Assembly (NCBI RefSeq): GCF_003044305.1
Contig: NZ_PZOX01000005.1
Location: 259,493 to 323,492, forward strand
From: Vitiosangium sp. GDMCC 1.1324
GTDB lineage: Bacteria > Myxococcota > Myxococcia > Myxococcales > Myxococcaceae
Direction: 5' to 3'
DNA: 64,000 nucleotides
Shown one piece after another: positions 8,832 to 35,686 of this stretch (the stretch's first letter is position 1; every line of letters starts with the position of its first letter). The notes beneath the pieces are model-generated. The model saw only the letters and a program-made list of their open reading frames with translations. It was not told the origin of the DNA and did no database searches. The position numbers and the translations under genes were made by a program.

Positions 8832-8834
8832 GGC

Positions 8835-10478: not shown

Positions 10479-10545
10479 GACCTCCGCAGTGAGGCGGCGG
10501 AGGTTACTCGATTCGTCGGGTATGTCGAGCCCCCCCGGCCCGCCG

Positions 10546-12134: not shown

Positions 12135-12167
12135 GGTGGGTGTCTCCTCGGAATGGGTACGGGGACT

Positions 12168-13820
12168 TCACTGGGCCTCGGACAGCGGACCCTCTTCGTC
12201 GGCGGCCTCGGGGGCTTCGATGCCCTGGCCCTGGTAGCTGGCCAGGGCCACGAGGGCGAGATCGCGCGCCGCCCGCCAGTGCTCCTGGCGCAGCAGGGGG
12301 AGGACTTGCTTCCAGCGCTCCTGGAGCGCGCGGTTGCCGCCCGCCCGGCTCCACAGGTCCGCCAGCGCGGCGCGCACCTGCTCGAAGGTTTTCGCCCCCG
12401 AGAAGGCCAGCCGCCAGCGGTCCCGCTCCGCGTTCCAACGGTTCTTCCGGGCCACGGGGTTGCCCCTGCTCTCCTCGGCGATGGCCCCGAAGCGCTGCCG
12501 GAGCGCCACGTGCACGCTCTCGACGAGGGTCTGCTCGGCGTCCTCCAGGTGCTTGAGCATGGCGATGAGTCCTTTCCGTTCCTCTGGGAAGAGCGCGCCG
12601 AGGTTGTCCTGGGCGCGGTAGTGGTGGATGAAGCGGCGCTTGTTGTCGAGGGTGACGGCGGCGGTGGCGAAGTCCTTGAACCAGGGCTGCCCGGCCGCGA
12701 GGTTCTCGGTGATGAAGGCGCGCAGCGCGCTGCTGGCCACGAAGAAGCCCGCAGGGCCCTGACTGGCGGAAGCCTTGCCCTTCCCTCCCTTGTCCTTGGG
12801 CAGGAGGACTCGCAGGCGGTTGGGCAGCTCGCGCGCGGCCGTCTCGTAGCGGTCGAGCACCGCCTCGGGAACGGTGCTGGAGTGGAGCACCCCGCTCCGG
12901 CTCTTCTGCTGGGAGGCCCAGGGCAGCGTGCGCAGGGTGAAGGCCTCGGCGGTGTCCAGCACCCGGTGCTGGCGCCGGCGGGATTCCATACGGAGCGCGA
13001 GTTGGACGGCGAGCACCGCGTCCGAGGCACCCGCCACGGAAGCCTCTTCCAGCCGTTGAGGCGTGAGGGAGGGGCGCAGCTCGGCGAAGCGGACCAGGTC
13101 CGACGGAGCGAGCGCCACCAGCGCCCCACCTCGGGCCTGGGGGACCTTGTAGGACAGGCACCCCACGGGCGCGAAGCAGGCACAGAGCGCCTCGGCGGCC
13201 GAGTACTCCATCTTCGTCACCCGGAGCCCGATGTGCCGCTCCGCCGCGCCCGGGTAGGCCCAGCCAGCGAGCGTGACGGTGCCCCGCGTGAGCGCCTCCA
13301 CCACGTCCTTCCACGCCCCCTGGTGGACGAAGCCCGAGTAGCCCTGCACCTCGAGCCGCAGCTCCCGCTCGTCCACCGAGAACGTGAGCACCTTCGGAAC
13401 GCCCTCCTTGGTGGTGGACTTGCCGTGCTGCAGGAAGGTGAGCTTGAGGGCGTCCTGGAGCGCCGCGGCCACTTCAGGGCGAGGCGGGGCTCCAGGCGCA
13501 TAGGCCCCGGGCAGGTCGATGACGCCCGGAGACTCGCGGATGCGGAAGGACTCGCGGAAGAGCACCTCGAGCGTCTCCGCGGGCGGTTTGCCTCCCCAGG
13601 ACAGGCGGATGGACGTGGGCTCCGCGGTCGCCGAGCCAGGCCCCAGCGGTACGGGCGCGGGCCATGTGGCGCCGGGTGTCTCCCGGAGCAGGAGCGAGCG
13701 GAGGGACGAGGCCAGGCCTCCAGCACCCGCACGCAACAGCGGCGTCATCCCCGGCGCATGGAGCCGCACCACCAACTCGGGGACGTCCATGACTGCCGGG
13801 CTCTTCACGGCTTTCGCCAT
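12168..13820 (-). CDS. cas8: Cascade large subunit (Cas8-like; Cas8u/Csb3/Csx17-type candidate)
   Basis: 550-aa protein encoded between cas3 and cas7 in a translationally coupled operon. No separate small-subunit gene follows. The family is assigned by position only. Confidence 0.55.
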   Translation of the reverse strand: MAKAVKSPAVMDVPELVVRLHAPGMTPLLRAGAGGLASSLRSLLLRETPGATWPAPVPLGPGSATAEPTSIRLSWGGKPPAETLEVLFRESFRIRESPGVIDLPGAYAPGAPPRPEVAAALQDALKLTFLQHGKSTTKEGVPKVLTFSVDERELRLEVQGYSGFVHQGAWKDVVEALTRGTVTLAGWAYPGAAERHIGLRVTKMEYSAAEALCACFAPVGCLSYKVPQARGGALVALAPSDLVRFAELRPSLTPQRLEEASVAGASDAVLAVQLALRMESRRRQHRVLDTAEAFTLRTLPWASQQKSRSGVLHSSTVPEAVLDRYETAARELPNRLRVLLPKDKGGKGKASASQGPAGFFVASSALRAFITENLAAGQPWFKDFATAAVTLDNKRRFIHHYRAQDNLGALFPEERKGLIAMLKHLEDAEQTLVESVHVALRQRFGAIAEESRGNPVARKNRWNAERDRWRLAFSGAKTFEQVRAALADLWSRAGGNRALQERWKQVLPLLRQEHWRAARDLALVALASYQGQGIEAPEAADEEGPLSEAQ

Positions 13821-16057
13821 CGCGCACCTCGCAGGGGGTCATAGGTGAGCACGTCACGAGGTGCCACCGGGTAGTGCTGGACGAGCTTCCAGGACTGCCA
13901 CCCACGAAGCCATGAGGGCGGCGGGTTCATGGGCAGGGCGGCCTCCTGGGCCTTCACCCTGCCCTGCTCGACGTCCTCCACGTCCTCCTCCCTCAGCACG
14001 GTGATGCCGGGGCTGGCCTCGCGGCAGGGAGCCGGCTCCGTGCAGAAGCGTTCATCGAGCCAGGTACTGGACGTGCGCGCGGCCCCTGTCGGTCCTGGCA
14101 GGGCCTCCCAGTCGTGGACGAGGTCGCGCTGCGACAGTTCTCTCCCACCGAGCCGCTCCAGCCACCCTTCCGCCTCGCGGAGCGCTGGCTGCTCGTAGGG
14201 CTTTCCCGTGAAGGGCAGCACGACGAAAGGACGGGGAGGAAGGGGGGCCTCGGGAGAGCTGCGGCGATTGAGGCGGCCCAGACGTTGGATGAGCGCCGGA
14301 ACGGGAGCCAGGTCCGTCACCAGCAGGTCCGCGGACAGGTCGAGACTCATCTCCGCCACCTGGGTGGTGCACGCGAGCACCGGTCCGTCCTGTTTGAAGC
14401 CCTTGATGACTTCGCCGTGTCGGTGGACCCGATCCACATAGCGGAACCGGCTGTGGTAGCGCATCGCGGGCAGGCCGCGCCGCTGGGCCTCGTCCGCGAC
14501 GTCGAGACACCGGTCGACGGTGTTGCTCACCCAGAGGACCTTTCCCCCCGAGGCGAGACACGCTTCCACCTCGCTCCAAGGAGTCTCGGGGTACACGCGG
14601 CGGTAGCGGGCCAGCCCTTCCAAATCGGCGGGGCCATCCAACTCCTTCAGTTCCACGCCATGCACGCGCTGGCACAGTGCACGCAACGCCAGCAGCCGGG
14701 GTTGGGGAAGGCTGGCCGTCATCAACAGCACGGGGAGGCCCGGCAGCGCCTCGAGGAAGCGCAGGAGGCTGCCGAAGAGCTCGGCGTCGTACGCGTGGAT
14801 TTCGTCGAAGACGACGCAGGAGTCACATAGCGCAGGCCACGCATACAGCCCCTTGCGCTGGTTCTGCACCAGCCCCAGCACCGTGTCCACGGTACAGGTG
14901 ATGACGTCACAGCCCCAGGCTCGTATAGCATCGAGCCTGTCCTGGTCACGCGAGGGCTCTCCGTCTCGCTGGAGGCCAAGAATATCGAGGTCCACCGCCG
15001 CGCGCCCGTGCTCCAAACGGCCCGAGACGTCGGCTCCGTGGACGTAGTCACGGAAGCCCTCCGTGGCCGTGCCGGTGGTTGGGTAGGTGAGCCAGAGCTG
15101 GCGTCCGGGGTGTTGGCGGGCGGCCCATGCGTATGCGGCCACCGTCTTGCTACTGCCACAACCCGCGCGCGCCAGGGTGAGGGGAGCCCGGCTGTGTGCG
15201 ACGGCCTCCTGGAAGGGGCGGAGCGAGCGGCCACCGAGACGCCGCTCCACGACGGACAGCATCTCCTCCGTGGAAGCCCGCTGCGCGAGCTGGGCGCCAA
15301 TCCAAGCGCGCCTCTCGCCACTCCGGGGCAGTGCGGAGCCCGCGACGTCGGCGGCCAGGACGAGGGCCTTGGCCACCGCGAGGAGCCGCGCGTCCGGAGA
15401 GCCGGCCGGCACCTGCCGCTCGAACGCCTCCTGCCACGCCGAGAATTGCTCACGCGGATGGCTCCGCCAGGAGACCGACAGACGGTGGGCGGAGGAAAAG
15501 GCTGGAGGCGCTGGCAGGCCCAGCTTCGTCGCGATGAGTTCCAACGTACGGTGGAAGTCCTCATGCTGGGTGAGCAGCTCGATGGACGAGCCGGCGCCGG
15601 AGTCTTCCGGTGCCACCGCCGACGCCCAGAATTTGCGGTGATGGGCCGCGGCGCAGACGAGCGCGAGGCAGAGGTCCCGCTCCCCGTTCACGGCTCCGCT
15701 CAGCCAGGAGGCGAGTGGCTGGCCGGGCCAGCATAGCCAGAGAGAGAGCGCCTCATGGCGCAGGAGCTGGGGCGCCTTCCTGACGTTGCGCACCATGGCC
15801 TGGAAGTGGTCGCTGCACTTGCCCAGGTCGTGGACGGCGGCTCCCAGCAGGACGAGCCCGCGCAGCCGCTCCACGGCCCCCCCGTCCAGGCCCGCAGCCC
15901 GGAGTGAGGCAAGCCCCCTGTGCTCGAGCAACTCTTCCGCCGAGGCCAGCACCATGGCGGTATGTCCACGCAAGGTGGCGGCCCCCTCGGGACGCTCGGG
16001 CGTCTGGGTGGCCTTGGCCAGCAGGTGCTTCACCCCCTCAGCGTGCCGGACGTGCAT
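13805..16057 (-). CDS. cas3: Cas3 HD nuclease / SF2 helicase (HD domain N-terminal)
   Basis: The H...HDLGKCSDHFQ HD motif lies near the N-terminus. Helicase motifs AGCGSSKT (Walker A-like) and VVFDEIHAYD (DExH) follow. Probable start is the ATG at 16057 (MHVRHAEGVKHLLAKA). The upstream 62 codons of the ORF are GC-rich read-through. Confidence 0.9.
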   Translation of the reverse strand: MHVRHAEGVKHLLAKATQTPERPEGAATLRGHTAMVLASAEELLEHRGLASLRAAGLDGGAVERLRGLVLLGAAVHDLGKCSDHFQAMVRNVRKAPQLLRHEALSLWLCWPGQPLASWLSGAVNGERDLCLALVCAAAHHRKFWASAVAPEDSGAGSSIELLTQHEDFHRTLELIATKLGLPAPPAFSSAHRLSVSWRSHPREQFSAWQEAFERQVPAGSPDARLLAVAKALVLAADVAGSALPRSGERRAWIGAQLAQRASTEEMLSVVERRLGGRSLRPFQEAVAHSRAPLTLARAGCGSSKTVAAYAWAARQHPGRQLWLTYPTTGTATEGFRDYVHGADVSGRLEHGRAAVDLDILGLQRDGEPSRDQDRLDAIRAWGCDVITCTVDTVLGLVQNQRKGLYAWPALCDSCVVFDEIHAYDAELFGSLLRFLEALPGLPVLLMTASLPQPRLLALRALCQRVHGVELKELDGPADLEGLARYRRVYPETPWSEVEACLASGGKVLWVSNTVDRCLDVADEAQRRGLPAMRYHSRFRYVDRVHRHGEVIKGFKQDGPVLACTTQVAEMSLDLSADLLVTDLAPVPALIQRLGRLNRRSSPEAPLPPRPFVVLPFTGKPYEQPALREAEGWLERLGGRELSQRDLVHDWEALPGPTGAARTSSTWLDERFCTEPAPCREASPGITVLREEDVEDVEQGRVKAQEAALPMNPPPSWLRGWQSWKLVQHYPVAPRDVLTYDPLRGARWRKP

Positions 16058-16667
16058 GGCGTGGCTCTTCCGCGACGTCGGCGCGAGTCGGAAGGAACAG
16101 GCCACACCCCATGTGTCGCCGCCCGCCCAATCCCTTCTCCTGGAGCATGACGGACGCTTCGGGCGACAGGTCCGACAGCTCGAGGCCGAAGCCCACCACC
16201 TTCTTGCCGGCGATGGTGACGATGCGTCGGCGCCCCACCTCAAGGGTGCACGGTGCGCCTGTCAATTCCTCGATGAACCGGAGAGCCGTGGCGCGAAAGC
16301 TCTGCTCGTCCAGCGAGTGCTTGAAGGTCACAAGCCTCGCGCTGAGCCGGGGCACCTGCTCCATGGCACGGACCGTGGGCGCGCCAATCGTCACGCTCCG
16401 GCCCACCAATTCGAGGCGCCCTCCCGCCAAGCCCAGGAAGAGAGGAATCGTCTCCGCCGGGCAGCGGATGCGGAGCGAGCCATGCCCCAGGTGGAGCGAC
16501 TCGCCTGTCGAACCGTCACCCCGCAGGTTGAAGACACCCACGTGCGGGTGCTCATGCAACTCGGGAATCCGAGCCGATAGGGCGGAGAAGAGCAGGTAAC
16601 CGTGGTCGAGCGGCACGGGTCCTCCTCGTGCCGGAAAAACGAGATCAACCGTAGGCATCGTCCCCCC
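16038..16667 (-). CDS. cas6: Cas6 endoribonuclease (Cas6e-like glycine-rich loop)
   Basis: C-terminal GLGGRRHMGCGLFLP matches the Cas6e G-x-G...MGCGL crRNA-binding loop. Start ATG at 16667 (MPTVDLVFPARGG) is preceded by a G-rich RBS; an alternative start lies at 16691. The 3-prime end overlaps the cas3 start. Confidence 0.75.
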   Translation of the reverse strand, partial: GGTMPTVDLVFPARGGPVPLDHGYLLFSALSARIPELHEHPHVGVFNLRGDGSTGESLHLGHGSLRIRCPAETIPLFLGLAGGRLELVGRSVTIGAPTVRAMEQVPRLSARLVTFKHSLDEQSFRATALRFIEELTGAPCTLEVGRRRIVTIAGKKVVGFGLELSDLSPEASVMLQEKGLGGRRHMGCGLFLPTRADVAEEPRHARPAR

Positions 16668-22754: not shown

Positions 22755-24185
<1,431 letters not shown>

Positions 24186-24331
24186 AGGCAGCGACAGCGG
24201 GTGGGTAAGTAGCCGACTTCCTCCGCCGACGCAAGCACGCTTTCATGGAACAGCACCCGGCCCGGAGATGCTCCCGAGGGAGGAGGCTCCACTGTTGGAA
24301 ACCCACCTGACCGCCCGCCAGGGGAGCGGGG

Positions 24332-24417
24332 TGCACGAGCCGGGGATCGAACCCGGACGGCCCCTTCGGGCCAGCGGATTTTAAGTCCGCTGCGTCTGCC
24401 AGTTTCGCCACTCGTGC
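24332..24417 (-). tRNA. tRNA-Leu (anticodon TAA), type II with long variable arm
   Basis: Reverse complement is GCACGAGTGGCGAAACTGGCAGACGCAGCGGACTTAAAATCCGCTGGCCCGAAGGGGCCGTCCGGGTTCGATCCCCGGCTCGTGCA. Acceptor and T stems pair; anticodon loop is CTTAAAA. Confidence 0.85.
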
Positions 24418-24506: not shown

Positions 24507-26153
24507 ATGCTTGAAACCGTCGCCAAGGGCTTCCGCGCCGCCAAGAACCGCCTTGCGGGCAAGAGTGAAATCACCCCTGAGATGGTGGACGAGTCGCTCC
24601 GCGACATCCGCGTCTCCCTGCTCGAGGCCGACGTTGCCTTCGATGTCGTGAAGAAGTTCGTCGCGCGAGTGCGCGAGAAGGCCGTCGGCGAGGTCGTACA
24701 AACAACCATCACGGACAAGGCTGGCCGCAAGCATCGCGTCTCGGCGGGCGACCACTTCGTGAAGATCTGCCACGACGAGCTTGAGGCCCTGATGGGTCCG
24801 GTGGACACGAGCCTCCAGCTCAAGCCCAAGGACCAGGTCAGCGGCATCATGATGGTGGGCCTGCAGGGCTCGGGTAAGACGACGACCACGGGCAAGCTCG
24901 CCAGCAAGCTGCTCAAGGAGGGCCGCAAGCCGCTGCTGGTAGCGGCGGACATCTACCGTCCGGCGGCCGTGGACCAGTTGAAGGTGCTGGGCGAGCGGTT
25001 GAAGGTGCCGGTGTACTTCGAGCCCAACGTGCCGCCGCCGGAGCTGGCGAAGCGTGGGTACGCCGCGGCGCGCGAGCAGAAGTGCGACGTGGTGCTCATC
25101 GACACGGCGGGCCGCCTGGCCATCGACGAAGCGCTGATGACCGAGCTGGAGGCCATCAAGGGCAACGTCCGGCCGGACAACATCCTGCTGGTGTGCGATG
25201 CGATGATTGGCCAGGACGCGGTGCGCACGGCGGCCGAGTTCGACCGGCGCCTGAGCCTGGACGGCTTCATCCTCACGAAGCTGGATGGTGACGCACGTGG
25301 TGGCGCGGCGTTGTCCATCAAGGAGGTGACGGGCAAGCCCATCAAGTTCCTGGGCATGGGCGAGTCGATGGACAAGCTCGAGGAGTTCCGTCCGGACGGC
25401 CTGGCCAGCCGGATTCTGGGCTTCGGCGACATCGTCGGGCTGATGAAGGACTTCGAGGGAGTCGTCGACGAGAAGAAGGCCGCGGAGGACGCGCAGAAGC
25501 TCCTATCGGGCAACTTCTCGATGAAGGACTTCGTCGAGCAGATCCGCATGGTGCGGAGGATGGGGCCGCTGAAGGATCTGCTGGAGAAGTTCCCGCTCTT
25601 CGGGGAGATGACCGAGCAGCTCAATCCGGACGAGAAGGAGCTGACGAAGATCGAGTCGATGTACGACTCGATGACGGAGCAGGAGCGACTGCGGCCGCAC
25701 CTGATCAACGACAGCCGGGTGAAGCGCATCGCGAAGGGAAGCGGCCGCAAGACGGAGGAGGTGCGGGAGCTGCTGCAGAAGTTCGGGATGATGCAGCAGG
25801 TGATGGGGACGATCGGTCAGAACCCGGGGCTGCTGGGTCGCATCCCGGGATTCCGGCAGATGGGCCAGCTGGCGCAGCTGAAGAACATGGACCTGTCGAG
25901 CGTCTTCGGGAAGGACCCGAAGATGATGGAGAAGGCCATGGCGGGGATGGGGATGGGGGGCATGCCGATGCAGCTGCCGCAGATTGCCCCGGGCTACACT
26001 CCGCCGATGGGACAGGCAGCGATGGCGAAGGCGCGAATGATGGGCTACGCCCCGCCCTCGGCTGCGGGTGGCAAGTCCGAGAACAAGGACGCCATCAAGG
26101 AGCGCCGCAAGCGCGAGAAGGAAAACAAGAAGAAGAACCGGAAGAAGAAGTAG
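24507..26153 (+). CDS. ffh: Signal recognition particle protein Ffh (SRP54)
   Basis: N, G and M domains are present: LLEADVAFDVVKKF, GLQGSGKTTTTGKLA, DTAGRL, TKLDGDARGGAALS, and a Met-rich C-terminus. Confidence 0.95.
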   Translation: MLETVAKGFRAAKNRLAGKSEITPEMVDESLRDIRVSLLEADVAFDVVKKFVARVREKAVGEVVQTTITDKAGRKHRVSAGDHFVKICHDELEALMGPVDTSLQLKPKDQVSGIMMVGLQGSGKTTTTGKLASKLLKEGRKPLLVAADIYRPAAVDQLKVLGERLKVPVYFEPNVPPPELAKRGYAAAREQKCDVVLIDTAGRLAIDEALMTELEAIKGNVRPDNILLVCDAMIGQDAVRTAAEFDRRLSLDGFILTKLDGDARGGAALSIKEVTGKPIKFLGMGESMDKLEEFRPDGLASRILGFGDIVGLMKDFEGVVDEKKAAEDAQKLLSGNFSMKDFVEQIRMVRRMGPLKDLLEKFPLFGEMTEQLNPDEKELTKIESMYDSMTEQERLRPHLINDSRVKRIAKGSGRKTEEVRELLQKFGMMQQVMGTIGQNPGLLGRIPGFRQMGQLAQLKNMDLSSVFGKDPKMMEKAMAGMGMGGMPMQLPQIAPGYTPPMGQAAMAKARMMGYAPPSAAGGKSENKDAIKERRKREKENKKKNRKKK

Positions 26154-26417
26154 CCAGCCACCGCTCCAAAGAGGAGCGTCACACACGCGCCGCTCGGGAA
26201 GCCCCAAGGAGGGCCTCCTGGAGCGGCGCTGGTGTTTCCGGGAGAAGTCCGGCGAGGTAGACGGTGCATCCTGGGAACAAGACGAGGACGCCCCACGTAA
26301 CTCCCCGGTTCGCGCTGGACTGAGGCATTCTCCGCGAGTTGTTTCGGGAACTTACACACGCAAGATCCCGAGACTCAGCCACAGGCGCCTGGAACGGAGC
26401 CTGCACTGCGGAGCGGC

Positions 26418-28382
26418 ATGCAAACATTCAAACGCTACATCCCCCTGGTCCTCATTGGGCTGATTTCCGCATGCATTGACGTGCCGAACATCGAACCCAA
26501 CAACCCCCCCACTACGCAATCGGACGCCGGTTCGACGGACACCCCTGACTCGGGTACACAACCGAGTGAGCTGTCTGTCGAGATCACCTCCCCCACGGGC
26601 ACGATCTACACCAGCAGCTCGGTTTCCATCTCTGTCGGTGTGCGAGGAGGAACACCCGAGACGGTACAGCTCTTCAAGGGGTCCGTGGAACTCGCAACGA
26701 TCTCCTCGCCCTACACGTACACATGGAACACAGAAATGGAGCCCGAGGGCAGTTACACGCTCATGGCTCGCGCCACCAGGTCTGGCCGGACTGTCTCCAG
26801 CGAACCCGTGACCGTGATCGTCGACCGTACCAATCTGCAGGTCGCTTCGCGTTCGCCCGCGCCCGGCTCAACCAACGTGGCCTACAGCACGCCCATCCAA
26901 GTGGTCTTCTCGAAGCCCGTAAAGGCGGCGACGGTCAGCGACACCACTGTGAGTTTCGCTGTCTCTGGAGTTCTCGCGGAGAAGACACTCTCGCTTTCGA
27001 GTGACGGGAAGACGCTGACGATCGCCCCAAAGGTAAAGCCTCCGCTGCCGGCAACCTTCTCGATTGGCCTGAGTAGCGGTATCACCGATCCGGCCGGTAA
27101 CGCGCTCGTCGTCCCAAGCACACAGTGGAGCTTCGAGCTGCCACACTGGTACGCCTTCGGCGGGCCACTGAATGCGGTGGGTGGCAACACCCAACTGAAG
27201 GATACCGCGATGGTCCTCGACAGCCAGAACAATCCCGTGGTCGCCTGGAGTGAGGAAGTCACGACCGGAGGCAGGGCGTCCATCTTCGTCTATCGCTGGG
27301 ACGGCAATGCCTTTACGCCTATCGGTAGCGCCCTGAACGGAACTCCGAGCGGCTCCGCTTCCAAACCAGCGCTGGCCCTCGACGGCGGCGGGAATCCCAT
27401 CGTTGCATGGCAGGAATCAGACGGCTTCAATGAGAACATCTACGTGAAACGTTGGACTGGAACGTCCTGGCAGTCCGTGGGCACAGGAGCCCTGTCCGCA
27501 GAGAACGACACTCGCTCCAGCCCAGTTCCGACACCAGCTCGCAACCCCACACTCACAGTGCGCGGAAATGAAATCTACGTCGCATGGGATGAAACCAATA
27601 TCGACCAATTCTCGTCCATCTACGTACGAAAGTCAGTCGGTGGTGGCGCGTTCACCGAAGCAGGCACGGGTGGAGGTTTAGTTAACGCCGTATACAAGCT
27701 GACCAGCGCATCCAAGCCCTCGCTCGTACTGGACAGCAACGGCCAACCCATCGTGGCCTTCCAAGAGCAGACTCTGGAGCAGTATTCCCCCACCAACATC
27801 TATGTGATGCACCTCAAGCCGGACGGCTATTGGGAGTATGCGGTTCCACCATTCTACGGCGACGACACCAATGGCTACGTCTCTGGCGGCCTCAGCGCCT
27901 CTCCCGGGGGGGACTCGTGGGCCCGTGATTGCTCACTGGCCATTGATGCCCAGAACAACTTGTATGTAGCGTGGACAGAAGAGACCTACACCGATGGACC
28001 TCGGGACATACAAGTCTTCCGTTCCATTGGACCACAGTCGTGGGAGCGGGTTGGAAATCCCCTGAGCGCATATGGCGCTATTACGACTGCTGGGCAACCA
28101 CGAATCCAAGCCACCCCCTCCGGCAAGCTCTTCGTTACTTGGAAAGAGTTCGATGGAATGGCAGAGACGGGGTACGAGCACCTTTTCACCAGCTATTGGG
28201 ACAGTAAGTCATGGAGGAGTCTAGCAATTCGCGATGGCATCAACCAGGGCCAGAAGAACAGCAACCGTCCTGTCCTTGCAATTGACTCATTTGAACGGCC
28301 CGTGGTCGCTTGGTACGAGAGCCGCGATGCTGTTGATGACGTCGCTGGAGACTATGCCTATGTCCGCCGGTACAACAATTAA
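26418..28382 (+). CDS. Secreted lipoprotein with N-terminal bacterial Ig-like domains and about 7 C-terminal repeats (predicted beta-propeller); hypothetical
   Basis: Lipobox LIGLISAC. Seven repeats of the form NP[IV]VAW.E....IYV.RW.G.W..VG. GC is markedly lower than the flanking genes. Confidence 0.7.
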   Translation: MQTFKRYIPLVLIGLISACIDVPNIEPNNPPTTQSDAGSTDTPDSGTQPSELSVEITSPTGTIYTSSSVSISVGVRGGTPETVQLFKGSVELATISSPYTYTWNTEMEPEGSYTLMARATRSGRTVSSEPVTVIVDRTNLQVASRSPAPGSTNVAYSTPIQVVFSKPVKAATVSDTTVSFAVSGVLAEKTLSLSSDGKTLTIAPKVKPPLPATFSIGLSSGITDPAGNALVVPSTQWSFELPHWYAFGGPLNAVGGNTQLKDTAMVLDSQNNPVVAWSEEVTTGGRASIFVYRWDGNAFTPIGSALNGTPSGSASKPALALDGGGNPIVAWQESDGFNENIYVKRWTGTSWQSVGTGALSAENDTRSSPVPTPARNPTLTVRGNEIYVAWDETNIDQFSSIYVRKSVGGGAFTEAGTGGGLVNAVYKLTSASKPSLVLDSNGQPIVAFQEQTLEQYSPTNIYVMHLKPDGYWEYAVPPFYGDDTNGYVSGGLSASPGGDSWARDCSLAIDAQNNLYVAWTEETYTDGPRDIQVFRSIGPQSWERVGNPLSAYGAITTAGQPRIQATPSGKLFVTWKEFDGMAETGYEHLFTSYWDSKSWRSLAIRDGINQGQKNSNRPVLAIDSFERPVVAWYESRDAVDDVAGDYAYVRRYNN

Positions 28383-28461
28383 TCCTGTCGCCCCTTGCAA
28401 CAGCGCCAAGGGCCACAGCGTCCCGCAGTAAATGCAATCTTCAAAGCGGCAGGAAGAAACT

Positions 28462-29562
28462 TCAGCCTTGCCGCTTTGGCACCACGAGTCCTCGGGAGAG
28501 GCGGCGCAGAACACGCCGCTTCTGACGACGCTTATAGAGTTTGTGAGCGTTCTCCCCTTCCTCGTTCTGGCGAGCGGTTTCTTCGTCGATGATCTGGAAC
28601 TCCACGAGAGTAAAGATCGTACGGTTCTTGCGCTCGCGTGTGTCCTGCTCCGGCGGCGGCAGGTACGCATCCATCCGCAGAGGCACATCTACGATGAAGT
28701 TCAATGCCCGGTAGGAGCCTCCGGAGAACAGATTGCGCGTACGCTCCTCTCTATCCTCGTAATCGAGGTCCAGGTGGAGGTGCTGCGCGTACTGCTGGAG
28801 GTGGGGATTCTCCTCAAGCACGGCCTTGAAAGAAACGAGTGTGTTCTCGGTCTGACCAGGGACAACGAAGTTGAAGGGGAAGAGGTGCTGCGTCAGGAAA
28901 TAGAGAACTGGGAGGATGTCCGCTTGATTCTGGGTAACGATACGAAATCGCGTCCGGTCGTAAATTTGAGCCGCGACCGTTTCTCTCTTGGCCAGCAGCT
29001 TCGTGATGAGAGACTCGCGTGATTTGATGGAATGGGCGAACTCGACGACAGGCAGCCCCTTATCCCGAAGCAACTGGGCCACCCCCAACACCTTGGCCAT
29101 CACCAACTCGGACAGCTCCGCTTCGGAGACCGCCAAACGGTGGAGCAGATCCCGCCCCTCGATGTGCTGAATGACATGCATCACCTTGAGCACGATACAG
29201 GCGATACGACGGTGCCTCGGGAGCCCCTTTACGCCGGAGGCATAGAGGAAGAGATCGTGGATCTCAGCTGGGTCCGCTACAGCATCCGCTACCCGGTAGT
29301 TGTAAGTCTGCCGCAAGTACTCGACGGCATCCGCGAGCACCAAGCGGGCCCAGACTGCATCTTCAGGACGAGTAGTGTCGATTTGGCAGAGCCGCAGGAA
29401 TCGGTCGACCTCATCCCGAGTCTGGAAGTGCATCCGCCGCCAGTCGATGACCGAACTCCCCCGAAGGATAAGCCGGATGCGCTCAAGCTCGCGGAGGCCC
29501 ATGTCCGCCATGGTGCAAACAGGGATATCGGGCAACTGTGGGATAGTGGGCACGAACTTCAC
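28462..29562 (-). CDS. Divergent RelA/SpoT-domain (RSH / small-alarmone-synthetase-like nucleotidyltransferase) protein, 366 aa
   Basis: HSIKSRESLITKL matches Syn1 (RxKxxxSxxxK). YDRTRFRIV matches Syn2 (DxxGxR, with G replaced by R). EFQIIDEETARQNEEGENAHKLYK matches Syn4 (EVQIRT..H..AE..H..YK). An extra helical domain of about 150 aa precedes these. No signal peptide; low GC. Confidence 0.6.
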   Translation of the reverse strand: MKFVPTIPQLPDIPVCTMADMGLRELERIRLILRGSSVIDWRRMHFQTRDEVDRFLRLCQIDTTRPEDAVWARLVLADAVEYLRQTYNYRVADAVADPAEIHDLFLYASGVKGLPRHRRIACIVLKVMHVIQHIEGRDLLHRLAVSEAELSELVMAKVLGVAQLLRDKGLPVVEFAHSIKSRESLITKLLAKRETVAAQIYDRTRFRIVTQNQADILPVLYFLTQHLFPFNFVVPGQTENTLVSFKAVLEENPHLQQYAQHLHLDLDYEDREERTRNLFSGGSYRALNFIVDVPLRMDAYLPPPEQDTRERKNRTIFTLVEFQIIDEETARQNEEGENAHKLYKRRQKRRVLRRLSRGLVVPKRQG

Positions 29563-29615
29563 ATCTGGGCTTCTAGCCGAGCCCGCCCACGGAGGGAAGG
29601 GCCTCCGGAATCGGC

Positions 29616-31502
29616 ATAGGGGGTAGCAAGGTCGCCTCGCTACTCCCCTGCCACACCACCGGACATGCGGGTCCGCATCCGGCGGTTCAGTAGGTTGAGG
29701 TTAGCTGGAAAGTCTCGGGACTCCCAGCCGGTCGAAGTAGCTCGTGGGCAGGGCGACATGGAGGTACATGCCCGCGTTCTTCCACCAGCGGCGGGCGTTG
29801 GCGGCGACCTTGAGGGCCATATGCTCGGGCATTCCTCGGGCACACAGCTCGCGGTACACCGTCTTCCCCCGCTTCCACTGCTTGAGCTGGAGGGCTCGCA
29901 GGCGATGACGTAGCCACTCGTCTAGTCTCCGAAAGACACCGGGGGTGTCCGCCAGGTGGAAGTATTGCTTCCAGCCCAGCAGGTACCCACGTAGTTCCTC
30001 GGCCACTGCTTTCAGGCTGCGCCCCCCGGACACGGGAGGTCAGCTCCCACACCCGGTCCTTCATTGTCTCAAGGGCCTTGGGCGACACGCGCCGTTTCAC
30101 CTGCCGTCCCTTGGCTATCCAGAAGCTGTAACCCAGAAACCGCCGGCCCCACGGTCGCGCCACCGCGCTCTTCGTCTCGTTGACTCGCAGCCGGAGCTCC
30201 GCGTACAGCCGCCTGAGCGTCTGCATGGCATCCTCCGCCGCACGCCTGGACTTCACGTACACGTTGCAGTCGTCGGCGTAGCGCACGAAGCACAACCCGC
30301 GCTTCTCCAGCACCTTGTCCACCTCGTCGAGGAGCACGTTCGCCAACAGCGGCGAGAGGGGACCTCCTTGCGGTGTCCCCTCGTACCGCTCCATCACCAC
30401 CCCGTTGGCCATGACTCCGGCCTCCAGGTAGCGGCGAATCAGCCTCAGCATCCGCTTGTCCCCGATTCTCTTCTCCAACCTTCCAATCAGCACATCGTGG
30501 TTGACACGGTCGAAGAATTTCTCCAGGTCCACGTCCACCACCCACCTGCGTCCTTCCTGGATGTAACGCTGCGCCTCGCACACCGCGTCGTGTGCGCTGC
30601 GTCCAGGCCGGAAGCCATGGCTGTGCTCCGAGAAGGTGGGGTCGAACATCGGTTGCAGCACTTGCAGGATGCTCTGCTGGATGAGCCGGTCGAGCACCGT
30701 CGGAATCCCCAGCTTGCGGACTCCTCCTCCGCTCTTGGGTATCTCCTGCTCCCGTACTGGTTGGGGCTGGTAGCTGCCGTCCAGCAGTTGAGCCCGGACA
30801 GCCTCCCAGTTGTCCACCAGCCAGGGGCCCAGCTCTTCCACGTGCATCCCGTCGATGCCGGGGCTGCCCTTGTTCTGCCTCACTCGCTTCAGCGCCGCCT
30901 TGACGTTGCCGCGCTCGACCACCCGTTGCATCAGGTGGTCGTCTCCCGGGTGTCCGTTTCCGCTCTCCGCCGTCAGTGCTTCACCGCTCCGCTGGCCCTT
31001 CGGGGCTTCATCCCTATGCTCCAGCGGGAGCTCCCTTTGCAGGGACTTCTGGCGCCTGGCACTTCCGAGATTCACGTTCGTGACTCCCTCCCTACCATTT
31101 GGCCCTTCGCGGCTCGTCGTCTCTCCAGCTCCGGTGAGGCTTCCGCGCCATCCCTGCCGGTCCGCTCCCCGCTACTACGGCCTCTGCTGACTGCTCGCTC
31201 CGCCTCTCGGCGTCGCCCTTTCAGGCGCGAGGCGAGCTCTCCCCGGGTAAGAACATCGACCTTCACCACGCGAGCGCCGGCTTTACGTCACCTCGCCTTG
31301 GCCACCGAGGCTTCGCGGCTCTTTGCCCGCTCGCCCCGCTCGGTGCCGCCTCACAGCCGGTTCCTGTTCGTCGCCCCGCCGCTTCGTTCCCCGCTTCCTT
31401 CACGTCGGCCTCGCGGGCCGGCGCTCTGCGGTTCCCTTCGTTCGCGGTGGCCTGCTCTCGGGAGGACTTCCACCTCCCTGTCGATGCCCATGCCGGGCGC
31501 AC
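29616..31502 (-). mobile_element. Bacterial group II intron (compact, class C-like), about 1.9 kb, 5-prime GUGCG at 31502, domain V at about 29651-29688
   Basis: Minus-strand 5-prime end is GTGCGCCCGG, immediately after a GC hairpin plus TTCGCTTTG. The IEP ORF lies in domain IV. Domain V hairpin is CCGCCGGATGCGG-ACC-CGCATGTCCGGTGG with a 2-nt bulge. A domain VI-like hairpin is GGGGAGTAGC...GCTACCCCC. The 3-prime boundary is approximate (+/-10 nt). Confidence 0.8.
29701..31075 (-). pseudogene. Group II intron-encoded reverse transcriptase/maturase (IEP), split by a frameshift near 30035 between the RT and X/maturase domains
   Basis: RT motifs present: GSPGIDGM, FRPGRSAHDAV, VVDVDLEKFFDRVNHD, TPQGGPLSPLLANV, FVRYADD. 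The X domain GYLLGWKQYF...LDEWLRHRLR continues in another frame (ORF 29701-30033). The tail of the 462-aa ORF is out-of-frame read-through. This is either a true frameshift or a sequencing error. Confidence 0.75.
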
Positions 31503-31514
31503 CAAAGCGAAGGG

Positions 31515-31549
31515 CCCTCTCCCGCTCGGGGAGGGCCCTCTGGGTGTCA
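31515..31549 (-). terminator. GC-rich hairpin (GGGCCCTCCCC-GAGC-GGGAGAGGGCCC) plus T-rich tail downstream of the MORN gene; insertion target of the intron
   Basis: Imperfect inverted repeat visible in the sequence. On the minus strand it is followed by TTCGCTTTG, then the intron 5-prime GTGCG. Confidence 0.4.
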
Positions 31550-31565
31550 CTGCGAGGCAGTTCGA

Positions 31566-32066
31566 CTACTTCGCGGCGACCTGCTGGTCGTCGCGGTACT
31601 GGGCTTGGCGGATGAGTTTCCCGTCCTCGGAGAACTCCTGCACGAGTCCGTTGCGCTTGCCATTCGCGTACTCCTCCACGATGCGCGGCTTGCCGTTCGC
31701 GAAGTAGAGAACACGCTTGCCATGGTAGTTCTCACGCTGGAATTCAGTACGGCCGGTCACCTGACCAGCCTCGTTGTAGAAGGTCCACTGGCCGGAACGA
31801 AAACCATCGACGTACTGCCCCTCGGAACGCTTCTGGCCGTTGGGATAGTACGACATATACGGGCCATGAGGGGTGTGCATGCCGTCCGTAGCCTCGGCCT
31901 TACGACAGAAGAGTCCATCATCCGCGTTGCCGAATTGCTTGGTACCTGCAGGGCAGTTCAGTTTGTAGGTCGCCGCGCTCTTGGTCGCCTGCCCCTCGGC
32001 AAAAGCCATCGGCGCAGCAAGCACCACTCCAAGAGTGAGGGTCTTCATCATCTTCGAAGGCAACAT
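31566..32066 (-). CDS. Secreted MORN-repeat protein (YwqK-like antitoxin/immunity family)
   Basis: Start ATG at 32066 follows an AAGGAG RBS. Signal peptide MLPSKMMKTLTLGVVLAAPMAFA. Repeated G.Y..YYPNGQK..EG.YV.G...G.W.FY motifs (MORN-like). Confidence 0.7.
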   Translation of the reverse strand: MLPSKMMKTLTLGVVLAAPMAFAEGQATKSAATYKLNCPAGTKQFGNADDGLFCRKAEATDGMHTPHGPYMSYYPNGQKRSEGQYVDGFRSGQWTFYNEAGQVTGRTEFQRENYHGKRVLYFANGKPRIVEEYANGKRNGLVQEFSEDGKLIRQAQYRDDQQVAAK

Positions 32067-32297
32067 GGACTCTCCTTGTGAGAACGTCGGCATCGCCGTA
32101 CGCACACTCTAGAGGACGCCCCACCTCGGGAGAAATTCAGCGCTTTTCCCACCGGATTTCGAGCCGAATACGCCTAGAGCGGGCACGACTCAGTATGGAA
32201 CTCTCAAATGCAAGGGCCCCGCTCAGCGAAGTGCCAAGCAGGGCCTGGAAGGCAACAACTGTTGCTGCTGAATCAAGACCGATACGAGATCAAAGCG

Positions 32298-33218
32298 TTA
32301 ATAGTTGGCTTGATAGCAGAAGAAATTGCCGTTGGCGAAGTAGAACGCCGTCGAGAGCGTCTTGCTGGTGTCCGCAACGCAGAAGCTCAGGGTGATGTCC
32401 GCGCGCTCACGGTTCGTACCAGTCACCGTGTAATTGCCTGGCGAGCTGCTAATGATTGCAGGGGCAGACTTCTTGGTACCATCCACCTGAACCCAGAACA
32501 TGCCATTCAGTTCGTCCTTCGTCTGCGGGAAGGGGCTGCCAGAATACGCAGAAATAGTCACCTTGACGCGCTTGGGCGTCGCAGAACCAGAACCGCAGAA
32601 GCTATCGGTCGCGGCACTTGTGGTCACGGCTTTGAAGGTGATGGGGCCAGTCGTCCCCAATTCATTGCGTGCGGTGAAGTTCTGGTAGTTCTCGCACGTG
32701 GGAGCAGGCACTGCCGCACACTTGCTGCTGCTGCAGAATTCGCCATAGGCGCAGGTGGTCTGACCCTCGCCAGAGCAGGTGGCGCCCGTGGTCGGCGCCT
32801 TGCACACGCCCGCCTGGCAGGTCTGGCCCGAGGCGCAATCCGCGTCCTTCGTGCACGTGGCCGGAGCGGTCCCGGTCGGCGCACACACCTTGTAAGCGCT
32901 CGAGCACTCCAGACCCGAAGCATCAGACAACCGCTCGTCCTGCTTGCAGAACTCCGACGTGCTGCACTTGCAGATCTTCGTGGTGTCCGTGCTGCTCAGC
33001 GCCTCGCAAACCTTCGCCGAGGCGGGGCAATCCGAAGCATTGCCACTGGCACAGGTCTGCACGCACACCTTCGCGCCAGGATGGCAGATCTCATTATCGA
33101 GGCAGTCCGCGGTCGTCGAACACGTCAGGCTCTCACGACCATTGCCGCCACAGCCCATCAGCGCCAGACCCACCGCGCTCAGCGCGGTCAGCATCAACGT
33201 CATCTTCCGAATCTGCAT
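32298..33218 (-). CDS. Cys-rich secreted lipoprotein (hypothetical)
   Basis: Lipobox ALMGCGG. About 40 Cys in repeated C-x-C and EGF/knottin-like spacing. Lower GC. Confidence 0.55.
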   Translation of the reverse strand: MQIRKMTLMLTALSAVGLALMGCGGNGRESLTCSTTADCLDNEICHPGAKVCVQTCASGNASDCPASAKVCEALSSTDTTKICKCSTSEFCKQDERLSDASGLECSSAYKVCAPTGTAPATCTKDADCASGQTCQAGVCKAPTTGATCSGEGQTTCAYGEFCSSSKCAAVPAPTCENYQNFTARNELGTTGPITFKAVTTSAATDSFCGSGSATPKRVKVTISAYSGSPFPQTKDELNGMFWVQVDGTKKSAPAIISSSPGNYTVTGTNRERADITLSFCVADTSKTLSTAFYFANGNFFCYQANY

Positions 33219-33444
33219 TCTCGACTTCCTCCTCAATGGGTACGTCGCTCGGGGTGGGCCTCCGGCCACTCAGTCAGGCTCCCCTTCCGTCCTGCAGCGC
33301 GCGGCTTTAGTCCCGGCGCTCCAGAAGTGTCAACGAATGTCGACACTTCCTCCGACGTATGGCCTCAGGGGAAATTCAGCAGGCGTGAAGCGGACAGTCG
33401 TACGAGTCGGTTGACTCAAATGTAACTGTCCGCTTCCCGAACTT

Positions 33445-35532
33445 TTAGAAGGTGAACGGGAAATCGATGGAGTCGCCCTGCACCTTGTGCTTCGGGAAGT
33501 TCCAGCCCTTGATGAGCCCAGAGATGCAGCTCGCCATGTAGGTCGAGCGGTACTCCGCCGTCTGGCACGACACGTTCTTCGTCTTGCCGTTCGTCTGGAT
33601 CGTCCAGCGCATCACCAGCTTGCCGCTCAATCCCGGATCCTTCTTCTTCTGCTCGTTCACGCACTTGACGATCGCCGGCTTGTTCGCCACCACCACCTGC
33701 ATGATGTCCGACTGGCCGAGCCGCTCGAGCGTCGCTCCACCACCGCCAGGCTCCGGCGGAATGTAGGCCGTACGGCCGTTCGCCGATGCATTGTCGTTCT
33801 TGGGACTCGACTTCTTCGTCCCGAAGAGCTCGTCGAACTCGTCATCCGCGTTCCCGCTGCTCTTGGGCTGCGTCTTGCTCGGGCGCGCGACCACCTCTTC
33901 TTCGTCGTTGCTCGGGGTATTACGCGTCGGCGGAGGACGGCTCGCCGCGGAGGTCCGCTTGGTTCCATTGCGATCCGGCACCTCGGCGCGAGCGATCTGC
34001 TGCGGCTCCGTCTTCGGAGGCTCGGCGGGCTTCACCGTCTCGGCGGGCGGAGGCGTCGTCGGATTCGCCGCTGGCGCAGTCCCAGGGGTCCCCGCGGCCG
34101 CAACGGCCGGAGCGGTCGCAGGAGCCGTCGTCGGTGCAGTGGCCTGCTGGGCCGAGGTCCCCGCCGGTGGCGTGCCCTGGGGATTCTGCGCCGCACCCGC
34201 CGGAGGTGGCGGCATGGGCGGCAGCTCCGCCGGCTTCGCCGGGGCTGTCGTCGGTGCCTGAGCCATCTGCTGCTGCGTCGCCGCGGGCGGCGTTACGGGC
34301 CCTCCATGATCGGAAGACCGGGTCGCGAAAAAGATCCCCACTCCACCGACCAGCAGCACCACGCCCGCCGCCACGCCGATGATCATCCCCATCTTGCCGC
34401 CCTGCTTCGGAGCAGGCGCCGCATGCGCATAGCCGGGGTAACCCTGAGGCGGCGCGTAGTGCTGGGGAGGCGGATACGGCTGGGCCATCGGCTGCGCATA
34501 CGCCTGCGGGGGCGGCTGCGCGTAGGCCGGCGCCGGAGCAGGCTGCATGTACGGCGCGGGAGCGGAGGGCTCTGCCCGCAGGGGGCTCGGGGCCGCCACG
34601 GGCGCAGGCTCCGGCGGAGGTACGTCGAGCAACCCCGACGCCGCGGGCTTCGCCCGCTCCTCCACCGGCGAGGCCTTGGGCGCCGACTTCGACAGCGCCT
34701 CGTTCTCCTCCTTCACCAGCGACGCGAGCACGCTCGCAGCCGAGGGCTTCCAGCCCGAATCCTGCGCGGACGGTGCCACGGGTGCTGGCGTCTCGGCCTT
34801 CGCCGACTTCGACAGGCCACCCGCGCTGAAGGCGGACTCCACCGGCCCGGATGCCACCGGCGCGGGCGACGCCACCGGTGCGGGCTCCACGATGACCGGC
34901 CGGGTCGGGCGCGGCGCCAGCACCGACGCCAGCTCCGAAGCCTCCGAGAGCGGAATCCAGTCGCTGAAGCCCGCACGCCAGCACAGGCTGTCCGGACCGA
35001 CCTCGCCCCGCTCCCAGTAGTCCTTCACCTTCTCGAGCGACAGCGGGCCCACCTGCTTCTCGTCGATGGCGACGAACCACTCGTGCGCGGCCGCGGGCTT
35101 GGCGCTCCCCGCCTCGGCCTCCGCGAGCTTGCGCACCGTCTCGCCAGCGTCCGACACGGCCGCTGCATCCAGCTGCGCCGGGCCGCTACCGGCCGCCTCG
35201 CCCGCGGGAATCCTGTGCGACCCGGAGTTGAGCACCTGGTCGAACACAGCGCCGAGCTCGTCCTCCTCGACACCGCTGAAGATGCCCCCCTCGGGAGGCG
35301 TCCCCAGCGACGCGGGCAGACCGAAGCCGGTGTTGTCCGATTGATCTTGGGACGCGGCCGCACCGCCAGCGGCCTCACCACTCGTCCCCTCCTCCTTCGC
35401 CGGCGCGGAGCCGGCGGGGCGGACCACGATGTTGTAGCCGCACTTCTTGCAACGAACCTTGACGCCCTTCGCGCCAACCTTGTCGTCGCTGATCATGTAC
35501 TGCGCGCGGCAGCTATCGCAGACGAAACGCAT
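33445..35532 (-). CDS. gltJ: GltJ/AgmX-like gliding motility protein: N-terminal MJ0042-type zinc ribbon and GYF-like domain, Pro/Ala-rich linker, one TM helix, TonB-C-like periplasmic domain
   Basis: MRFVCDSCRAQYMISDDKVGAKGVKVRCKKCGY (Zn ribbon) and HEWFVAIDEKQVGPLSLEKVKDYWERGEV (GYF-like). TM segment MGMIIGVAAGVVLLVGGVGIFFA. It sits next to a giant TPR gene in the G1 cluster order. Confidence 0.7.
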   Translation of the reverse strand: MRFVCDSCRAQYMISDDKVGAKGVKVRCKKCGYNIVVRPAGSAPAKEEGTSGEAAGGAAASQDQSDNTGFGLPASLGTPPEGGIFSGVEEDELGAVFDQVLNSGSHRIPAGEAAGSGPAQLDAAAVSDAGETVRKLAEAEAGSAKPAAAHEWFVAIDEKQVGPLSLEKVKDYWERGEVGPDSLCWRAGFSDWIPLSEASELASVLAPRPTRPVIVEPAPVASPAPVASGPVESAFSAGGLSKSAKAETPAPVAPSAQDSGWKPSAASVLASLVKEENEALSKSAPKASPVEERAKPAASGLLDVPPPEPAPVAAPSPLRAEPSAPAPYMQPAPAPAYAQPPPQAYAQPMAQPYPPPQHYAPPQGYPGYAHAAPAPKQGGKMGMIIGVAAGVVLLVGGVGIFFATRSSDHGGPVTPPAATQQQMAQAPTTAPAKPAELPPMPPPPAGAAQNPQGTPPAGTSAQQATAPTTAPATAPAVAAAGTPGTAPAANPTTPPPAETVKPAEPPKTEPQQIARAEVPDRNGTKRTSAASRPPPTRNTPSNDEEEVVARPSKTQPKSSGNADDEFDELFGTKKSSPKNDNASANGRTAYIPPEPGGGGATLERLGQSDIMQVVVANKPAIVKCVNEQKKKDPGLSGKLVMRWTIQTNGKTKNVSCQTAEYRSTYMASCISGLIKGWNFPKHKVQGDSIDFPFTF

Positions 35533-35686
35533 CGTTCCCCGCAACTCTCAGTAATGACGGGAGAAAACCCGCCGGAATCGTAGAGGTGGCACCCGGGGGG
35601 GTCAAGGATGCCGACTTCGCCCGCCCGGTTGCCATTTCAACGTGTGAGCACCCCATTCGGGTCTCACGGATATTCGAGCCGCTCAT

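Follow-up and report, generated by a model that had tools for sequence, protein, structure and literature searches.

Which activity should be expected of a stand-alone RelA/SpoT-like protein whose gene lies beside the gliding-motility genes of a myxobacterium? The question is raised by an open reading frame (ORF) at positions 28462 to 29562, on the minus strand, of a 64,000 nt stretch of the genome of Vitiosangium sp. GDMCC 1.1324 (contig NZ_PZOX01000005.1, positions 259,493 to 323,492); this whole stretch is called the window below. RelA/SpoT homologue (RSH) enzymes produce the alarmones (p)ppGpp and (pp)pApp and include the toxins that pyrophosphorylate tRNA and, to our knowledge, each newly characterised RSH branch has so far brought a new product or target. 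The development of myxobacteria, in turn, is a textbook case of multicellularity triggered by (p)ppGpp. An earlier note on this DNA had described the product of the ORF as a stand-alone, divergent RelA/SpoT-domain protein, and had proposed that it is a toxin of a toxin-antitoxin (TA) or defence module, with a neighbouring MORN-repeat protein conferring immunity. The first part of this description was borne out, since the ORF is real, and a Pfam match, a family profile and the predicted fold all relate its product to RSH synthetases. The second part was not. The best overall explanation, which we consider probable, is that the gene is a core gene for a cytoplasmic, two-domain protein of the family TIGR04552, and that this protein is an active pyrophosphokinase with a remodelled acceptor site and not a toxin.

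Family membership and fold

The gene, the two domains of its product and the motifs discussed below are located as follows.

28462..29562, minus strand: TIGR04552-family protein, 366 aa with a GTG start by ORF call, orthologue of Myxococcus xanthus MXAN_4858
29053..29562, minus strand: N-terminal all-helical domain, aa 1-170, family-specific
28462..29052, minus strand: SYNTH domain (RelA/SpoT-type, nucleotidyltransferase fold), aa 171-366
28999..29031, minus strand: Syn1-like motif SIKSRESLITK, aa 178-188, with conserved K180, S184 and K188
28942..28959, minus strand: Syn2-like motif DRTRFR, aa 202-207, with D202 as predicted Mg2+ ligand and R207 kept
28699..28878, minus strand: family insert between Syn2 and Syn3, with PFNFVVPGQTENTL at aa 229-242, and Syn3-like motif YRALN, aa 284-288
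28522..28602, minus strand: Syn4-like motif EFQIID, aa 321-326, and Syn5-like motif GENAHKLYKRRQ, aa 336-347

Third-position GC and the codon pattern indicate that the ORF is coding. Its start codon is uncertain: with M21 (29502) as the alternative start, the protein would have 346 aa, and annotators list the orthologues with either 366 aa or 346 aa. The longer form is favoured by tblastn matches that begin at residue 4-8 in genomes with no more than 62-70% identity. The sequence of the protein shows neither a signal peptide nor a transmembrane segment.

The earlier note could not place the protein in a family, which turned out to be possible with a single profile. The NCBIfam model TIGR04552 matched aa 24-357 with 400.5 bits (cut-off 125; E=7e-120) over nearly its whole length (profile positions 3-352 of 352), and the sister model TIGR04562 reached 339.8 bits. 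The signature motifs of the family (GGSVIDW, LKVMH, K..S...K, DxxRFR, PFNYVVPG, VEFQ..D and GEN.H..YK.RQ) are all present, with G36S, which turns GGSVIDW into GSSVIDW, as the sole deviation. More than 2,000 relatives are present in public databases. The 120 best of them are 67-95% identical and belong to Archangium, Melittangium, Hyalangium, Stigmatella, Corallococcus, Pyxidicoccus and Myxococcus; the name 'TIGR04552 family protein' has already been given to many. The window, a piece of myxobacterial chromosome, is most similar to Archangium minus, which has a protein with 95% identity. An exhaustive HMMER search of 1.84 billion cluster representatives yielded 764 clusters (at 50% identity) with E<=1e-3, 155 of them with E<=1e-30, and the distant relatives used for comparison also passed the TIGR04552 cut-off. 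Nearly all full-length members are 340-400 aa long, so that the two-domain architecture defines the family. Judged by its sequence, the protein is thus an ordinary orthologue in a catalogued, uncharacterised family, and neither the founder of a new gene family nor a new toxin.

Members of this type have probably been counted before. The supplementary tables of an RSH census list one unclassified, synthetase-only 'SYNTH[S]' entry each for M. xanthus DK 1622 and Sorangium cellulosum; the M. xanthus entry, YP_633016.1, stands there beside Rel and pbcSpo and is assigned to no subfamily (Atkinson et al., 2011; PMC3153485). These 'SYNTH' proteins are probably of the TIGR04552 type; a match of the accession YP_633016.1 to MXAN_4858 could not be confirmed. 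In Bdellovibrio bacteriovorus, no family member was detected by the census (PMC3153485). A genome of Bdellovibrio sp. is annotated with a TIGR04552 protein, and a study of Bdellovibrio evolution counts a TIGR04552 gene among its mutated loci (PMC9888234).

The relationship to RSH synthetases was apparent at the level of profiles and structures. A search of the PDB with the single sequence gave no match. The Pfam model PF04607 (RelA_SpoT) matched aa 179-346 with 24.2 bits (E=4.3e-5), under its gathering score of 27, and no other domain was found in the Pfam search; in particular, an HD hydrolase domain is missing, as the earlier note had stated. The family was represented by an alignment of 67 sequences that reaches down to 29% identity and that was the basis of the residue conservation and of the AlphaFold2 model described below. 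PF04607 matched 31 of the 67 members independently (E<=0.01), none of them better than E=1e-5. When the family profile was compared with PDB sequences, RelP (E 0.0067) and RelSeq (E 0.0094) were retrieved, and the motifs Syn1 to Syn5 aligned one to one. By these profile matches, the likeness to RelA/SpoT proteins goes beyond chance.

The AlphaFold2 model is a single confident body (pLDDT 91.6, pTM 0.89), in which seven helices (aa 23-167, within a domain of about aa 20-167) are followed by a beta-alpha-beta core. The N-terminal helical domain of 150 aa that had been predicted in the earlier note was thus recovered, and the Pfam search and structure prediction that it had proposed both led to an RSH assignment, the Pfam match being sub-threshold. 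The top 50 Foldseek matches of the model in the PDB were all RSH synthetases, with RelP and RelQ first (E about 2e-6). Fold comparison of the model gave the following scores.

B. subtilis Rel: 13.1 (128 residues, 2.4 A)
RelP: 12.6
RelQ: 11.8
SpoT: 10.5
tRNA pyrophosphokinase CapRel: 8.9
Exported small alarmone synthetase (SaSAS): 8.3
Tas1: 6.8
Unrelated nucleotidyltransferases: 7.6 or less

By these scores, CapRel and Tas1 are farther from the modelled fold than Rel, RelP and RelQ are. The N-terminal domain packs tightly onto the catalytic domain in the model, and it carries two motifs of the family, L-x-L-x-G-G-S-V-I-D-W (aa 31-41) and A-C-x-x-L-K-V-M-H-x-I-x-H (aa 121-133). The second contains K126, the only invariant Lys.

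Residues of the predicted active site

Direct translation confirmed the readings DRTRFR for Syn2, with a G to R exchange, and EFQIID for Syn4 to the letter. The claim that the Syn1 pattern RxKxxxSxxxK is conserved was correct for K180, S184 and K188 and incorrect for the Arg of RxK, which is Ser178 in this protein, as in the family consensus. In RelQ, this Arg stacks on the adenine. The canonical Gly of Syn2 is replaced by a near-invariant R205. In the Syn3-like YRALN, Y284 is kept and Asn288 stands for the canonical His; this motif is preceded by the insert, which comprises 40-60 aa across the family and contains the motif PFNYVVPGxSxNxL. In known RSH enzymes, the region of the insert and of Syn3 is part of the acceptor-nucleotide site. 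Syn4 keeps E321 and Q323 and has ID in place of the canonical RT, and Syn5 keeps H340, Y343 and K344; the counterpart of both in the profile alignment with RelSeq is EIQIRT...GVAAHWAYK. The protein therefore does not conform to the canonical (p)ppGpp-synthetase motifs RxKxxxSxxxK, DxxGxR, YxxxH and ExQxRT, and the deviations are family-wide.

At least 90% conserved over the 67 sequences are K180, S184, K188, D202, R205, R207, E321, Q323 and D326, and also N333, G336, H340, Y343, K344, R346 and Q347. The catalytic Asp of Syn2 (D202), the catalytic Glu of Syn4 (E321) and the Syn1 and Syn5 residues align with the motifs of RelP and RelSeq. D202 and E321 correspond to Asp264 and Glu323 of RelSeq, which we take from the established mutagenesis of that enzyme to be required for synthesis. 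Near-invariance also applies to the deviations themselves, that is, R205 for Gly, N288 for His, I-D326 for RT and the PFNYVVPGxSxNxL insert, and in the alignment they look like changed specificity, not decay.

A mechanism can be proposed on this basis. The C-terminal half keeps the residues with which Rel, RelP and RelQ bind ATP-Mg2+ and catalyse transfer (K180/S184/K188, D202, R207, E321/Q323 and H340/Y343/K344). Because the catalytic and phosphate-binding residues (K/S/K, HxxYK, D202 and E321) are kept, we infer that the protein is an active, ATP-dependent pyrophosphokinase, which would transfer the beta,gamma-pyrophosphate of ATP to a 3'-OH. Those regions of the fold with which (p)ppGpp synthetases hold the acceptor are remodelled throughout the family (R205, N288, I-D326 and the 40-60 aa insert with its PFNYVVPGxSxNxL motif), and the acceptor may therefore be other than GDP or GTP. 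The product may be of the ppApp type or otherwise non-canonical. The helical N-domain with K126 probably gates or regulates the active site.

Genomic context and a possible link to gliding motility

The genes that precede the TIGR04552 gene on the same strand, and the elements in the spacer before it, are the following.

33445..35544, minus strand: gltJ (agmX), NCBIfam gliding_GltJ with 930 bits, last recognised gene of the G1 gliding-motility cluster
32298..33269, minus strand: Cys-rich protein with a lipobox-like N-terminus (LMGC) in its translation and a weak Myxo_Cys_RPT match, between gltJ and the MORN gene
31566..32105, minus strand: MORN_2-repeat protein with an N-terminal signal peptide (Pfam MORN_2, E=1.6e-16)
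31510..31541, minus strand: terminator-like GC-rich hairpin, then UUCGCUUUG, directly after the MORN gene (folding -34.3 kcal/mol, z -2.5)
29616..31502, minus strand: group II intron of 1,887 nt, in the same orientation as the genes, in the spacer between the MORN gene and the TIGR04552 gene

Farther upstream, NCBIfam equivalog models identify gltE, cglF, gltG and cglE, in addition to gltJ; the position of gltI is taken by a giant tetratricopeptide repeat (TPR) protein of 4,088 aa, without confirmation by an NCBIfam equivalog. Between cglE and this giant, an ORF of 676 aa (48054..50084, minus strand) has only weak clathrin- or TPR-like Pfam matches and no NCBIfam match; its call is uncertain, because the opposite strand has an overlapping ORF of about the same length. 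On the other side of the TIGR04552 gene there is a convergent gene for a secreted Big_5/BNR protein, followed by ffh.

To trace this arrangement, 80 orthologous loci were collected as the best matches from a search with an 11-sequence alignment, all of them from Myxococcaceae/Archangiaceae that carry relatives, and the neighbouring genes of the window were mapped onto them by tblastn. Six more distant loci, on metagenomic contigs, were sampled singly. Syntenic orthologues are present in 80 of the 80 sampled genomes of Myxococcaceae/Archangiaceae, with 62-95% identity to the Vitiosangium protein, and the ratio of nonsynonymous to synonymous substitution rates (dN/dS) against the Archangium and Hyalangium orthologues is 0.04-0.12. 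The earlier note had named a clear orthologue of a housekeeping small alarmone synthetase, conserved across myxobacteria, as speaking against its own proposal; the first part of this, a clear orthologue with such conservation, was found here. The neighbours are less conserved: identities are 32-71% for the MORN protein, 25-67% for the Cys-rich protein and about 30% between genera for the Big_5/BNR protein. GltJ, the MORN protein and the Cys-rich protein all fall below the enzyme in conservation, and Ffh alone surpasses it. In M. xanthus, the gene order is gltI-gltJ-Cys-rich-MORN-TIGR04552 with ffh convergent, 100 bp separate the MORN gene from the TIGR04552 gene, and the intron is missing. Synteny and substitution rates mark the gene as a core gene that occupies a single locus, is passed on vertically and is under strong purifying selection.

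Horizontal acquisition, as suggested by a low GC content, was considered and rejected in view of the conserved synteny and the low dN/dS. The region 26000..33500, which includes the gene, has 55-63% GC as compared to 67.5% for the window, and the GC content at third codon positions is 0.73 for the gene, 0.85-0.95 for the glt genes and 0.92-0.93 for the orthologues in two other loci (L074 and L079). Because the synteny is conserved, the low GC content is no evidence of recent transfer.

Within Myxococcaceae/Archangiaceae, the association with gliding genes is real as synteny. In 71 of the 80 loci, gltJ is found upstream of the TIGR04552 gene and on its strand; in at least 15 of them, 31-150 nt separate the end of gltJ from the TIGR04552 start, and no gene intervenes. 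Where the two genes abut directly, they may be co-transcribed. The protein could, accordingly, be a dedicated accessory factor or regulator of the Agl-Glt gliding machine and its gene the last of the G1 operon, which would be compatible with an enzymatic function. Besides the position downstream of gltJ, the presence of gltE, cglF, gltG, cglE, gltI and gltJ upstream within the window favours this view, as do genetic data from M. xanthus: according to a preprint, transposon insertions in MXAN_4858 are viable, have a mild developmental phenotype, and resemble glt mutants in a pooled developmental fitness assay by barcode sequencing (BarSeq; bioRxiv 10.64898/2026.08.28.747804). An earlier insertion in MXAN_4858 (Pathak & Wall 2012), however, had no overt effect on motility, as that preprint relates (bioRxiv 10.64898/2026.08.28.747804). 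Moreover, the family occurs without any glt gene nearby in other Myxococcota and in genomes of lower GC content, a terminator-like hairpin precedes the gene in the clade of the Vitiosangium copy, and ffh is the other neighbour in 62 of the 80 loci, so that the position may reflect inherited synteny at the border of the cluster. The linkage may simply mark the border between the G1 cluster and an older TIGR04552-ffh neighbourhood. On balance, a dedicated role in gliding appears rather unlikely.

A wider proposal is equally tentative, namely that TIGR04552 is a phylum-wide, RSH-derived class of Myxococcota and related predators that, by virtue of its remodelled acceptor pocket and private N-domain, makes a nucleotide other than (p)ppGpp, or pyrophosphorylates a macromolecule, and whose signal would, in Myxococcaceae, feed into gliding motility and development. 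Such a signal would explain both the linkage to gltJ and the glt-like BarSeq phenotype of MXAN_4858.

The distant loci differ from one another in context, and the surroundings of the gene there are unrelated ones of a housekeeping kind. Within the Myxococcaceae, metagenome-assembled genomes (MAGs) with 62-64% identity have the orthologue after rpsM-rpsK-rpsD-rpoA-rplQ. On three Polyangia/Haliangiales-like contigs (L084, L085 and L086), a gene for an Lhr-type helicase is near the TIGR04552 gene, and on two of them (L084 and L086) also a gene for an ABC1/UbiB-type kinase, which may reflect either synteny within this lineage or a second neighbourhood that recurs. The gene is divergent from enolase on two contigs with 49% GC, and it precedes a small ORF and HPPK on a contig with 43% GC. 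No recurring partner gene was found among the six distant loci compared.

The MORN gene and the intron had also been noticed in the earlier note, correctly as to their positions. Downstream of a probable internal start, the MORN protein begins with MKTLTLGVVLAAPMAFA/EGQ, which reads as a Sec-type signal peptide, so that the protein would be exported, away from the cytoplasmic enzyme. Its gene neighbours the TIGR04552 gene in a single clade; it is immediately upstream in only 43 of the 80 loci, lies several kb off in L054, L064 and L066, and is absent where gltJ abuts the TIGR04552 gene. The hairpin after the MORN gene has counterparts of different sequence at the same position in M. xanthus (with the tail UUUGUGUUUG), A. 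gephyra and Corallococcus, and its sequence and folding resemble those of a conserved intrinsic terminator or attenuator that separates the two genes. No sigma-70 promoter came out of a simple promoter and terminator scan, which also passed over this hairpin; the hairpin was found by folding. The adjacency in no more than 43 of 80 loci, the export signal and the hairpin in three genera speak against an immunity function of the MORN protein.

The MORN and Cys-rich genes occur in Myxococcus, Corallococcus, Archangium, Hyalangium and related cultured genera, and also in a number of Myxococcaceae MAGs, such as L056, L057 and L067. A large group of Myxococcaceae MAGs is devoid of both, and there gltJ often abuts the TIGR04552 gene directly; the loci named for the distribution of the two genes are L036-L046, L049-L052, L055 and L059-L063. 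Both products, the exported MORN protein and the putative Cys-rich lipoprotein, may have been added to the gliding cluster as periplasmic components in particular lineages.

The intron was recognised by the Rfam family RF02001 (D1-D4 element) at 31252-31420 (85.8 bits) and by an ORF with an RVT_1 domain at 29687-31075. Its boundaries were deduced from its ends (5' GTGCG, 3' ...CTAT) together with the break in homology with intron-less loci: homology with the Archangium loci stops just past the hairpin and resumes about 50 nt before the start of the TIGR04552 gene. The intron begins directly after the hairpin tract, the last G of which is its first base, and bacterial class C introns are known to insert directly behind terminators. 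No reverse transcriptase (RT) match was obtained at this site in the 80 related loci; hence, the intron is a recent, strain-specific insertion behind the terminator and is uninformative on the function of the enzyme. The intron-encoded protein is split over two frames, with the RT domain in the ORF 29687-31075 and a maturase-like C-terminus in the ORF 29701-30033, which suggests a frameshift or a sequencing error.

Several other features of the window were recorded. The convergent gene at 26418..28382 (plus strand) encodes a secreted, fast-evolving Big_5/Big_7/BNR-like protein of 654 aa that is absent from many related loci. A very large CRISPR array (about 143..7796) has about 100 copies of the 36-nt repeat GTGCTCAACGCCTCTCGGCATCACGGCGAGCGGGAC with a period of about 71 and adjoins cas genes on the minus strand (8538..16243), among them a Cas4-Cas1 fusion (8835-10478), a DevR/Cas7-like gene (11229-12134) and Cas3 (13805-16243). 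The 3' end of a tyrosine-integrase gene (22755-24179, plus strand) overlaps a tRNA gene on the opposite strand (24112-24185), and a second tRNA gene (24332-24417) is located just before ffh. The region 22755..24417 looks like the edge of an integrated element, which possibly includes the CRISPR-Cas region. The CRISPR-Cas locus and the integrase gene lie beyond ffh and the two tRNA genes, and they are unlinked to the TIGR04552 gene in other genomes.

Alternative functions and comparison with known systems

Several observations weigh against an active pyrophosphokinase with a role in gliding. The canonical positions are altered in Syn1 (Arg to Ser), Syn2 (Gly to Arg), Syn3 (His to Asn) and Syn4 (RT to ID), and with these changes the protein could bind nucleotides and not convert them, or could take another donor. 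In every family member tested, PF04607 stayed just under its gathering score. A literature search found no biochemical or functional characterisation of any TIGR04552 member. Outside the Myxococcaceae/Archangiaceae, finally, no glt genes are near (the contexts are those of enolase, rpoA-rplQ, the ABC1 kinase and Lhr), which makes the gliding link a weak one.

Loss of the canonical positions in four of the five Syn motifs, the sub-threshold Pfam scores and the extra N-domain packed onto the catalytic domain would all be expected of a catalytically dead pseudo-synthetase in which the RSH fold was kept as a nucleotide or alarmone sensor or as a scaffold. However, pseudo-enzymes usually lose exactly the catalytic residues, and here D202 and E321 are conserved to at least 90%, down to 29% identity, together with K/S/K and HxxYK. 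Furthermore, substitutions such as R205, D326 and N240 are near-invariant, suggesting a different specificity and not decay. We therefore regard a dead enzyme as unlikely. Use of the same nucleotidyltransferase fold for another chemistry, for example the transfer of AMP or GMP to a small molecule, an RNA or a protein, seems improbable.

The properties expected of a TA or defence gene, that is, an adjacent partner, co-transcription, rapid evolution, a distribution that is patchy or mobile, and likeness to known models, did not hold for the TIGR04552 gene in any case: no adjacent small partner is common to the six distant loci, and a PADLOC scan of the gene gave no significant match to a defence model. 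A small alarmone synthetase with toxic activity (toxSAS) that pyrophosphorylates the 3' end of tRNAs or synthesises (pp)pApp and is neutralised by the upstream MORN/YwqK-like protein is highly improbable, given the irregular adjacency, signal peptide and lower conservation of the supposed immunity protein, the hairpin behind its gene, the strict synteny and vertical inheritance of the enzyme under purifying selection, its fold nearer to Rel, RelP and RelQ, and the fact that insertions in MXAN_4858 are tolerated in M. xanthus.

A pyrophosphokinase with a remodelled acceptor site would make TIGR04552 a worthwhile biochemical target: it is an RSH branch with a family-wide altered acceptor site that is strongly constrained in Myxococcaceae/Archangiaceae and also occurs in other Myxococcota and, if active, it would add to these organisms a second nucleotide-signalling enzyme besides Rel. 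The position beside the gliding genes offers a testable phenotype.

The nearest point of comparison is MXAN_4858 of M. xanthus, of which the gene is the Archangium-type orthologue and whose product is 72% identical, matches TIGR04552 over its full length and has the same gene order; the Vitiosangium copy differs from this locus by the group II intron in the upstream spacer and otherwise by nothing of substance. Compared with RelQ (YjbM/SAS1), RelP (YwaC/SAS2) and the SYNTH domain of long Rel/SpoT enzymes, the protein has an extra helical N-domain of about 110-170 aa without a known relative, and it differs from them in the Syn1 to Syn4 exchanges and in the insert before Syn3. In contrast to the toxSAS enzymes (CapRel, FaRel/FaRel2 and PhRel) and to Tas1, a secreted synthetase of (pp)pApp, it lacks a conserved gene for an antitoxin or immunity protein next to its own, has neither a pseudo-ZFD nor a fused antitoxin domain, and is associated neither with a secretion system nor with mobile elements; it is inherited vertically under purifying selection. 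Set against the characterised systems, it thus appears to be a variant on the theme of the small alarmone synthetases, from a family that is already catalogued, and not a new toxin or defence gene.

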